Positions 18,481 through 21,574 are shown, counted from the stretch's first letter. The stretch is 64,000 nt of DNA from Eledone cirrhosa (GCA_964016885.1 OZ024748.1:46562001-46626000); one strand, 5' to 3'. Numbers and translations are program-made. The notes: generated by a model from the letters alone, not told the origin.

Positions 18481-19791
18481 ATATATATATATATACATGG
18501 AAAGTTATATTTAAATTGTTGGGTTACAACTAGTAAATATTTATAACTGATATAAAAGCACTCGACAAGTATTTGGAGTATATTTACGATATTAAATAAA
18601 TGGAAACTATATTTATAAAACCATATTTATTTCATTATATATATTTCAGGGATATCATATTAACAATATGCTATGCCTTCCTCAGACAAAATACAATATA
18701 AACAGTTTTATAGATAAATAGATTTGACATACCGTACAACATCGACTTGTATTTGAAAAGTTGAATTGGCAGTGAAAAAATTGTACACAGAGAGAAAGAA
18801 AGAGAGAAAAAGGAAAGAAAGACAGAAAACGAAGAAAAAGAAGAAAAAGAAGAAATGCATGGAACAAAATAGCGAGATGGAAAGATATATAAAGAGAAGA
18901 ACATCATGTAAAGAAACAGAGATATATATATATAGAGAGAGAGAGGAAATAGAGATAGATATATATATATATATAGAAAACTAGGTAGTGGGAGCATCCG
19001 TTGAGTAAACGTATCAATGATACATTTATTTATTTATTTATTTATTTAGCTCTAGTATTAATGTAAGGGAGATATATGTGGTTAGGAGAGAAACCAGCTG
19101 TTATATAGAGAGAAAAATTAAAAATAACCAGACATAGGCGAGGCGTAAAAACCCTATGTTTTAATGTAGAGGTATTAGTATGTATAAAAACCAGCCACTA
19201 TATTGTAAAAATCAGTATTCCTGAATGAGACATGTATCCATAATGTGTGAAAAGTAATGATCTTATGTTTAGTTTTTTAAAAAAATTCATATGTTTATGT
19301 GATAACTACAAACATCTATGTGAATTTACATGATCAACTCTGCAAACCCTAAGTTCACGGAAAACATTCTCATTGTGCTATAAAAATTTAAGTATACATA
19401 TATGTGTATATATATACACACATATATATATAGAGTCTATATTACTACTATTGTCTTTACTCTACAAGATTATCTATCAAGCAGAAATAGAGAGCAGATT
19501 TCAATATATTAATAAAAAAATATATATCAGAAACAAAACCAAAAAATAACAATAATAATAATAATAATAAATAATAATAAAATAGAAAACTAAAAAATAT
19601 TACGAAAGAATATTACATATTAAAAATATTACATATTAAAAATAAAAATATTAGAAAATACTACAATAATAAAAATAAACCACAAAGATCAACCCTTCAA
19701 AATTAATTGCCAATATATTGCCAAGTTCATTTTAAGCATCAGAGTCGAAAAACAGATAAAGCTAAAAATTATTTATCAAATCGCATCTAGC

Positions 19792-20070
19792 AAAAATTCT
19801 TTCACAGATCCAAGCAAAAAATCTTCAACGGCACTATCAGGCGTACTCTGGCAACTTAAGCTAGATAACGTTAGATATTCGACGGCTTGGAATATAGTCT
19901 CAAGAGGGATTCCTTTTAATTCATCCTCTGAGACATGTGACCTCTGCGCAGAGGAGATATTCTTTATACTAAAATCTAAAAATTCCCTTAATCTACGGAC
20001 AAATTTATTCAGTTGCTGCAAACATAGATTAAACTCAACTTTTAAATATAAATTTAAATTTAAAATGTAG
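19792..20070 (+). pseudogene. C-terminal fragment of PLE GIY-YIG endonuclease (92 aa, no start codon; absent from the ORF track)
   Basis: KNSFTDPSKKSSTALSGVLWQLKLDNVRYSTAWNIVSRGIPFNSSSETCDLCAEEIFFILKSKNSLNLRTNLFSCCKHRL...* fits the ST.LS..W.LK...W.I....CxLC..E...LN.R....CxH pattern of aquatic-invertebrate PLEs. Confidence 0.85.
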
Positions 20071-21395
20071 TATATTTAGTTTCATTTATAATTATATGGG
20101 AAACTAGCCGATAAATCTTTCAATTTCTTCTTTTTATTCTTTTTTATTTTATTTTTATTTTTATTTAAACATTCTTCATGAAAAATTAAGCTACCCTAAA
20201 AGTTGATGCTTCAAATATTTCGAATAAACGTTACACTAGATAAACTTCTATATTAAATATAAGAACACATGTAGACCAAATGGGCATCCTAAACTTTTTG
20301 AAATGATTTTTGCTAGATGCGATTTGATAAATAATTTTTAGCTTTATCTGTTTTTCGACTCTGATGCTTAAAATGAACTTGGCAATATATTGTCAATTAA
20401 TTTTGAAGGGTTGATCTTTGTGGTTTATTTTTATTATTGTAGTATTTTCTAATATTTTTATTTTTAATATGTAATATTTTTAATATGTAATATTCTTTCG
20501 TAATATTTTTTAGTTTTCTATTTTATTATTATTTATTATTATTATTATTATTGTTATTTTTTGGTTTTGTTTCTGATATATATTTTTTTATTAATATATT
20601 GAAATCTGCTCTCTATTTCTGCTTGATAGATAATCTTGTAGAGTAAAGACAATAGTAGTAATATAGACTCTATATATATGTGTGTGTATATATATACACA
20701 TATATGTATACTTAAATTTTTATAGCACAATGAGAATGTTTTCCGTGAACTTAGGGTTTGCAGAGTTGATCATGTAAATTCACATAGATGGTTGTAGTTA
20801 TCACAGAAACATATTAATTTTTTAAAAAAACTAATCATAAGATCATTACTTTTCACACATTATGGATACATGTCTCATTCAGGAATACTGATTTTTACAA
20901 TATAGTGGCTGGTTTTAATACCTCTACATTAAAACATAGGGTTTTTACGCCTCGCCTATGTCTGGTTATTTTTAATTTTTCTCTCTATATAACAGCTGGT
21001 TTCTCTCCTAACCACATATATCTCCCTTACATTAATACTAGAGCTAAATAAATAAATAAATAAATAAATGTATCATTGATACGTTTACTCAACGGATGCT
21101 CCCACTACCTAGTTTTCTATATATATATATCTATCTCTATTTCCTCTCTCTCTATATATATATCTCTCTCTGTTTCTTTACATGATGTTCTTCTCTTTAT
21201 ATATCTTTCCATCTCGCTATTTTGTTCCATGCATTTCTTCTTTTTCTTCTTTTTCTTCGTTTTCTGTCTTTCTTTCCTTTTTCTCTCTTTCTTTCTCTCT
21301 GTGTACAATTTTTTCACTGCCAATTCAACTTTTCAAATACAAGTCGATGTTGTACGGTATGTCAAATCTATTTATCTATAAAACTGTTTATATTG

Positions 21396-21461
21396 TATTT
21401 TGTCTGAGGAAGGCATAGCATATTGTTAATATGATATCCCTGAAATATATATAATGAAATA
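21396..21461 (+). ncRNA. Type I hammerhead ribozyme motif (mirror at 18628-18693 on minus strand)
   Basis: TATTTTGT-CTGAGGA-helix II-GAAA-TATATA-TA-ATGAAATA. Confidence 0.72.
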
Positions 21462-21501
21462 AATATGGTTTTATAAATATAGTTTCCATTTATTTAATAT
21501 C

Positions 21502-21574
<73 letters not shown>

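Follow-up and report, generated by a model that had tools for sequence, protein, structure and literature searches.

The closest described systems are Penelope-like elements (PLEs) of the Hydra clade, which carry a C-terminal endonuclease (EN) (Craig et al. 2021, PMC8557442). The accessible text of that paper gives RWK, DKT, a CxCX5C linker and the lack of CCHH as marks of the clade, describes its members as generally short (<3 kb, a descriptive rather than a defining property) and calls the origin of the inverted and tandem structures of PLEs, and of their tails, undefined. An inverted 5'-truncated copy adjoining the 5' end is frequent in PLEs and is annotated for the Hydra family Penelope-13_HM. 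Among Penelope/Poseidon elements, inverted-pLTR insertions include Pen2a of Adineta, for which the accessible part of PMC3846280 gives an inverted-junction overlap of 15 bp and a tail that is optional at one end, and PAc of Anolis (PMC11167929). In vitro, both strands of the target are cut and extended by a Poseidon PLE protein, a predicted dimer, and the tail is delimited by two reverse transcriptase (RT) start sites that are alike on both strands (PMC11167929). Non-LTR retrozymes, in the accessible portion of their description, are head-to-tail tandem arrays with a type I hammerhead and a proposed PLE origin (bioRxiv 10.64898/2026.07.22.740005).

We analysed a window of 64,000 nt, one strand, of Eledone cirrhosa (GCA_964016885.1 OZ024748.1:46562001-46626000), which is AT-rich and dense in microsatellites. 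The element at 18587-21502 resembles Pen2a and PAc in its head-to-head repeat, short junction overlap and AT-rich target, but its EN tail is of the Hydra type, not canonical, and its inverted copy is 1.2 kb of untranslated region (UTR), compared with a pLTR of ~200 nt in the other two. It shares the type I hammerhead with the retrozymes but, being a single head-to-head pair with EN sequence, that is, with inverted and not tandem units, is not one of them; a MITE or DNA transposon was rejected as well, given the absence of a transposase and the presence of EN and hammerhead. We conclude that the locus is almost certainly a dead head-to-head remnant of a Hydra-clade PLE in a TA repeat. It is a new family of a known kind of element, with an inverted architecture already published for PLEs. 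The full explanation, namely, a 5'-truncated insertion of such an element in (TA)n, with two opposite-strand-primed cDNAs joined by CAAAAAT, appears to us probable.

The alignment of the arms (18579-19804 against 21510-20299) spans 1,226 columns, of which 1,199 are matches, 13 mismatches and 14 gaps (97.8%), and its outermost 8 nt on each side are TA-like flank. The left arm (18587-19797, minus strand) is the short, inverted, 5'-truncated copy and consists of 3' UTR only, the alignment reaching 19804 with two mismatches. The right arm (20299-21502) belongs to the microsatellite-rich, 1,432-nt 3' UTR of the long unit (20071-21502, plus strand), and between the arms lies an unpaired spacer of 494 nt (19805-20298, plus strand) that holds the EN tail and the beginning of the 3' UTR. 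Of the 13 mismatches, 3 belong to an (AG/AT) microsatellite, 2 to the junction and 1 to the flank; the remaining 7 are ordinary substitutions, 5 of which fall inside 45 nt. The indels are of 10 nt and 4 nt. The last 178 nt of the two arms are identical and both differ at 9–12 positions from a second, short head-to-head copy of the same family (9683-10043; 361 nt), which points to one event or one source for the two arms. The first-pass annotation had described near-identical 1.2-kb inverted arms, here seen at 18587-19804 and 20299-21502, in a young element bounded at 18587 and 21502. The right bound holds, whereas the left one very likely does not, the insert beginning at ~18498, and the element is young only in a relative sense, with ~7 substitutions and 2 indels between the arms outside the junction, flank and microsatellite; gene conversion between the arms could mask its age. 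That annotation mentions neither the one-sided tail and its motif nor the published precedent for the architecture.

At its right end, the element is tail-less and flush against (TA)37 (21503-21576). At the left end, an 89-nt tail (18498-18586, minus strand), which lies beyond the common 3' end and is present on the short unit only, is followed by a (TA)n flank (18475-18497; TRF 18475-18495) that is likely the target microsatellite. The short copy at 9683-10043 consists of two tail-less 3' ends of ~180 nt with hammerheads, flush in (TA)n. Thus, all four ends of the two copies in the window meet (TA)n, one via the tail, as in the Hydra clade; inside (TA)n, a target-site duplication is unreadable.

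The C-terminal half of a Hydra-clade GIY-YIG EN occupies 19791-20070 on the plus strand (92 aa from 19792). The stop-free frame 19792-20070 ends a longer stop-to-stop frame of 148 codons (19624-20070), the first 56 codons of which are read-through of the inverted UTR; the stop codon is at 20068-20070, with the UTR next. The first-pass annotation had singled out this frame by its W-I, CxLC, LNxR and CxH motifs, placed it on the strand of the right-arm hammerhead and read it as the C-terminus of a PLE, possibly of the Hydra clade, and each of these statements agrees with our results. The peptide contains W33/I35, CDLC, LNLR and CKH, in columns conserved in 114–150 of the best 150 homologues, and the hammerhead is on the plus strand at 21404. 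T13, L15, S16, W20, W33, C49, L51, C52, E55, N67, C76 and H78 are kept in 142–150 of the best 150 homologues; a later Glu (139 of the 150) is Asn in the window peptide. An exhaustive phmmer search with the 92-aa peptide yielded 1,555 proteins at E<=1e-3, 38 of them at 1e-10 (best 8.8e-14), and the peptide aligns with the last ~85 residues of RT-EN proteins. The longest match, P0076, is a 690-aa RT-EN with RWR, ADKT, YRDD, a CNC..CP linker, YVG, CxLC..E, LN and CxH and without CCHH, although it is only 34% identical to the window peptide.

Pfam returned no match for the window peptide itself; of 28 homologues scanned, P0096 alone passes the GIY-YIG cut-off (28.6 vs 22.6). An AlphaFold model of another relative, P0006 (pLDDT 89), built from an 84-row alignment with the window peptide among the rows, compares with I-TevI at Z 9.3 (rmsd 2.4, 89 residues aligned), with T4 EndoII at Z 8.4 and with UvrC at Z 6.7. 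Foldseek with a relative's model gave no match at E<=0.001 (T4 EndoII ranked 8), a PDB sequence search with profile A3 gave 0 matches, and a word-indexed protein search for longer homologues gave none among 39 candidates. The ESM atlas gave 0.96 to a 'GIY-YIG fragment' cluster, which we take as a lead only.

By eye, the arrangement of CDLC-x2-E, LN and CKH is that of the Hydra rows, and not that of the canonical rows, in the accessible part of Figs S2/S7 (Craig et al. 2021, PMC8557442). The likeness to the Hydra clade thus comprises the CxxC and CxH that flank a conserved E and N, a C-terminal GIY-YIG EN followed by the 3' UTR, insertion in (TA)n, and a hammerhead ~100 nt from the 3' end; the remaining clade marks (RT, RWK, DKT and the CxCX5C linker) were read in P0076, as RWR, ADKT and CxCx(n)C, those regions being deleted from the window copy. 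The Hydra-specific cysteines set the peptide apart from canonical EN+ PLEs (Penelope/Poseidon, Neptune, Nematis), and its position at the end of the ORF from Naiad, where EN is N-terminal. Compared with intact Hydra-clade elements, the window copy has no RT and no intact nuclease core. It has lost GIY, YIG, Arg and His but keeps Glu and Asn, and homology begins after the R/H helix. Tblastn and HMM scans of the window for RT-EN homologues found 19777-20037 alone. With the core lost and no other RT-EN match in the window, the copy is dead and cannot move itself; a functional gene was rejected given the loss of the nuclease core. Among the homologues, P0055 (XP_061775427.1), from the pipefish Nerophis ophidion, is an annotated Hydra-type RT-EN fragment on a 62-Mb sequence. 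The accessible text of PMC8557442 lists the Hydra clade from invertebrates only, and P0055 may extend the clade to vertebrates, where horizontal transfer or contamination might account for it.

Type I hammerhead patterns are found at +21404 and -18685, and in the short copy, at +9945 and -9779. In the right arm (21389-21467, plus strand), the putative ribozyme has the core CTGAGGA at 21404, a long stem II, a palindromic stem III and a predicted cleavage base at 21453; the mirror copy (18622-18700, minus strand) has its core start at 18685 and its predicted cleavage base at 18636. The core, stems I–III and an NUH site near the 3' end, as in the Hydra clade, make this a ribozyme predicted from the pattern. 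A simple scanner found 9 hammerhead motifs in the window compared with 0–1 in each of 20 shuffles. Rfam gave nothing at the gathering score for the window, its matches at E<=10 being hairpin and microsatellite noise with no hammerhead family, and the minimum-energy fold (z -0.02) does not contain the hammerhead core. Stem III is a TA palindrome, as it is in dimer-type metazoan hammerheads according to the accessible text of PMC4209133. By eye, the hammerhead is unlike those of all listed Hydra families, including Hydra-1_Obim. Lone hammerhead-bearing 3' ends are present on the minus strand at 62986-63110, 63290-63390 and 17500-17630; the hammerhead at 63092 belongs to a sister family that has its last ~60 nt in common with the main element and is cut by a SINE-like insertion, and behind the one at 17626 comes an RCTC-n-GAGY motif.

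The family also differs from its relatives in the distance from the EN end to the hammerhead, ~1,370 nt compared with 95–549 nt in 41 relatives. We placed contigs of 4 of 24 listed public runs (X1, X5, X6, X7) on 19770-21490. Contigs of X1 and X6 tile the 1.43-kb UTR at a depth similar to that over EN, although no contig bridges the UTR; given the similar depths, the long UTR appears to be family-wide and not a one-off capture such as the Pen1_Av spacers. With a ~2-kb ORF and a UTR of 1.43 kb, the parent element would exceed 3 kb. Summed contig depth climbs steeply toward the 3' end, with 92 loose ends at 21441; these loose ends indicate that other families share this 3' end, so that depth is not a measure of truncation. 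We found no matches to the element by blastn against the best 80 metagenome loci described below, and no exact match to a 44-nt family pattern in the metagenome contigs.

All four runs hold contigs whose match begins at 19791. In X1 (4 contigs) and X6 (3 contigs), the loose letters before this position read, in frame, ...R-Y-N-N-H into K-N-S-F, that is, the upstream EN helix, and in X5 and X7, the pieces start at 19791. Because the inverted UTR matches through 19797, CAAAAAT (19791-19797) belongs to it as well as to the EN coding sequence (12 of 14 positions with the extension); by random pairing of element strands, an overlap of at least 7 nt has a frequency of 0.002. The earlier suggestion that the left junction uses CAAAAAT microhomology with the H-K-N-S-F codons is thus substantiated by contigs of other copies, which depart at 19791. 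None of the listed pieces (29 of ~4,070) spans the hairpin; the palindrome is seen in the assembly. Run X1 contains two other opposite-strand joints of the family, 19822-20841 and 20850-21353, in one contig each.

We saw no second copy of the 89-nt tail of this family, and its assignment to the element rests on its motif and on the flanking (TA)n. It is longer than the 30–40 nt quoted for PLE tails, its fold is modest (z -1.8), and it sits on the unit without a spacer. Folding of its distal half (18498-18545, minus strand) gives a second hairpin, AC-rich in the loop, which recalls the AC-rich stem-loop where reverse transcription of the anole PLE starts; the element end lies ~20 nt past this hairpin. 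An RCTC-n-GAGY inverted repeat marks the start of the tail (18560-18579, minus strand), 106 nt after the left hammerhead core and at the expected hammerhead distance, with an A-T outer pair in place of the G-C of most relatives.

Other hairpins of the window have similar ends. Thirteen hairpins were chosen by eye from a self-BLAST of the window, without SINE-SINE pairs and microsatellite-driven matches. On one side, 10 of the 13 are flush (<=6 nt) in (TA)n (background 3.5%) and 3 are not; on the other side of those 10, 8 have an extension of 41–98 nt before (TA)n, 1 is flush, and 1 lacks a TA run in the nearest 300 nt. Exactly one tail is present in 8 of the 9 resolved hairpins (p ~0.02 were the ends independent), and the motif occurs in 6 of 9 window tails, in 5 families (background 1.8%). 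One family accounts for the hairpins at 42355 and 43643, two separate insertions that have their extension in common; the extension is therefore element-derived, and it is the tail already known from published PLEs. The link of this palindrome class to PLEs, proposed in the first-pass annotation from the one copy, is accordingly supported and widened by the hammerheads, (TA)n ends and tails of other hairpins. In two of them, 16258-17145 and 41287-41815, the long unit carries the tail.

Small TA-embedded palindromes with one-sided tails are found at 42278-42467, 43566-43761, 21579-21795, 47689-48012, 55495-55615 and 41287-41905. The truncation of the 42k/43k pair of this set falls in sequence that resembles a hammerhead. 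What may be a bulged hammerhead is found at ~41465 in the 41k unit, of which 41987-42258 is a tandem copy. A second large hairpin, 60187-62061, has 860-nt arms (99%), hammerheads at -60282 and +61966, a central 62-nt palindrome and, on the right, a 98-nt tail with the motif. On its minus strand, the inner end looks by eye like a frameshifted canonical (Neptune-like) EN tail ending P-R-G-L-N, a reading for which Pfam and the atlas gave no support; if it is right, the tail motif crosses PLE clades and the tail is again that of the short unit. The stretch 16258-17220, with a non-coding unit of ~480 nt, a partial tandem and an inverted end copy, contains the motif three times and a SINE-like repeat inserted at the pLTR/tail boundary; it looks like a non-autonomous PLE.

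The motif recurs among relatives of the element. Scanning metagenome contigs with the Hydra alignment, we identified 412 of 603 candidate stretches as relatives and kept the best 80 loci, of which 78 show a match to the window peptide and 41 a hammerhead downstream of EN. RCTC-n-GAGY was first noticed immediately after the TA-like repeat boundary in a set of 10 two-hammerhead loci. Among the best 80 loci, the motif is present after 20 of 21 5' hammerheads, among them those of 10 of the 11 loci outside the discovery set (shuffled background 11%). Of the 41 3' hammerheads, 14 were excluded for too little sequence after them; the motif comes after 21 of the remaining 27, each with 140 nt or more behind it (random 90-nt windows 5%). 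Four of the six 3' ends that lack the motif go straight into (TA)n. There are, then, two classes of 3' end across the clade, with the motif or directly in (TA)n, and the window element has one end of each. When the motif is read as a helix, the outer pair has 4 two-sided changes in 26 rows (2 rows misaligned) and the other three pairs are near-invariant; the covariation score was reached by 16 of 500 shuffles, which lends weak support to a putative RNA stem. We did not find RCTC-n-GAGY described in the literature searched, where figures, Repbase reports, subscription papers and the supplements of PMC11167929 may hold it; the term 'stem-loop' is absent from the main text of PMC8557442, as accessible. 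The motif, which lies beside the proximal end, likely marks a binding or start site of the protein.

The asymmetric ends and the 7-nt overlap suggest a likely origin of the hairpin from two separately started cDNAs. The RT-EN protein of the parent would nick both strands within (TA)n. At the left nick, priming would occur at the distal RNA start site, with the 89-nt tail and 1.2 kb of UTR copied; at the right nick, priming at the proximal start site would yield a tail-less cDNA of 1.7 kb that stops inside EN. As first-strand cDNAs, the top strand leaving the left flank would end in CAAAAAT and the bottom strand leaving the right flank in ATTTTTG; these 3' ends, being complementary, would anneal and prime fill-in. 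We lean towards this joining of two primed cDNAs head to head through CAAAAAT. In the twin priming of L1, the primers likewise come from opposite target strands and the cDNA ends are joined by microhomology, and the second primer anneals internally, producing an inversion without duplication. In the window element, unlike L1, both starts are at the 3' end, which gives an inverted duplication. No paper describing twin priming in PLEs was among those listed by our literature searches. Because the tail is on the spacer-less unit, the long unit in its present form cannot have been its template. Dual priming is favoured by the in vitro finding that the PLE protein, albeit of another clade than Hydra, cuts either strand and extends it from matching start sites.

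The same 7-nt complementarity suits fold-back self-priming equally well: a long cDNA that stops in EN would pair, through its 3' end, with the CAAAAAT that it carries 500 nt back and copy itself, after which one of the two tails would be trimmed by the endonuclease at the TA-like boundary or later deleted between TA runs. Such a route, which we consider possible but doubtful, is in line with the self-priming that Arkhipova et al. 2013 invoked for palindromic inverted junctions (PMC3846280, accessible text) and with the EN-mediated resolution to which the accessible text of Craig et al. ascribes the tail (PMC8557442); the short copy at 9683-10043 folds at an AATT palindrome, and the near-regular single tail of the window hairpins suggests a coupled process. 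However, plain fold-back cannot give the observed product because it copies only the content of the long unit, which has no tail, so that a tail confined to the copied, short arm calls for an extra step. Furthermore, re-cutting would be required for a target-primed first strand to lose its own start, and in vitro both strands are extended. The two hairpins with tails on long units are explained by fold-back equally well and do not discriminate.

In contrast to both routes, the palindrome might post-date the insertion as a product of DNA repair (microhomology-mediated inversion-duplication or break-induced fold-back), or it might consist of two adjacent independent insertions. Microhomology junctions are generic to repair, and the differences between the arms, a cluster of 5 substitutions in 45 nt and a 10-nt indel, could be taken in its favour; such an origin is nevertheless improbable given that most of the window hairpins examined are flush in (TA)n, with arms that stop at element ends and not in host DNA, that run X1 contains other opposite-strand joints of the family, and that 6 of the best 80 metagenome relatives have an upstream inverted copy of their own sequence. 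In all, 15 of these 80 loci contain an inverted self-match (a lower bound, the contigs being short), 4 of them with a 5' palindrome. In three metagenome contigs (L006, L027, L068), two diverged Hydra elements lie tail-to-tail, which fits shared (TA)n hotspots. Finally, fold-back chimeras are a known artefact and the hairpin is seen in an assembly, but an inversion created by assembly or chimeric reads is highly improbable: the arms differ, the right one departing at 20791 and at the 10-nt indel near 20916 where the left one keeps the state of other copies; the left end has the tail and motif, which the right one lacks; and both ends meet (TA)n in an architecture that is already published.

The window contains other repeats besides. 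A dispersed SINE-like family of ~200 nt (83–98% identity; 3558, 10521, 11034, 17278, 22867, 38410, 46407, 47078, 62797 and others) resembles an octopus SINE. A satellite of 68 nt is present in ~58 copies at 23528-27566, and other simple-repeat arrays lie at 547-1300 and 33800-35000. An open frame at 8482-8790 (plus strand) resembles the C-terminus of an RTE-type non-LTR element.

The element itself is an ordinary dead copy, and its importance lies in the geometry of the tail and in the conserved motif. With a known parent breakpoint, a measurable overlap and a tail beyond the reach of plain fold-back, the locus is a clean test case for the formation of such structures. A broader proposal, which we put forward tentatively, is that RCTC-n(7-22)-T(T/C)GAGY(ACT) might be an RT-EN recognition signal that lies behind the TA-like 3' end and sets the proximal start, such that a dimer would start the distal and proximal cDNAs on opposite strands and microhomology would join them, in the Hydra clade and perhaps in other PLE clades of this genome. 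If true, one rule would cover the inverted repeats of PLEs, their one-sided tails and the abundance of TA-embedded palindromes in genomes of this sort; in any case, the conserved motif is a concrete mutational target for in vitro work. As an annotation rule, a hammerhead followed at 60–106 nt by the motif assigns otherwise unclassified TA-embedded palindromes to PLE debris. With at least 10 such hairpins in a 64-kb window, they could be a sizeable source of dsRNA, and of assembly trouble, in this genome.
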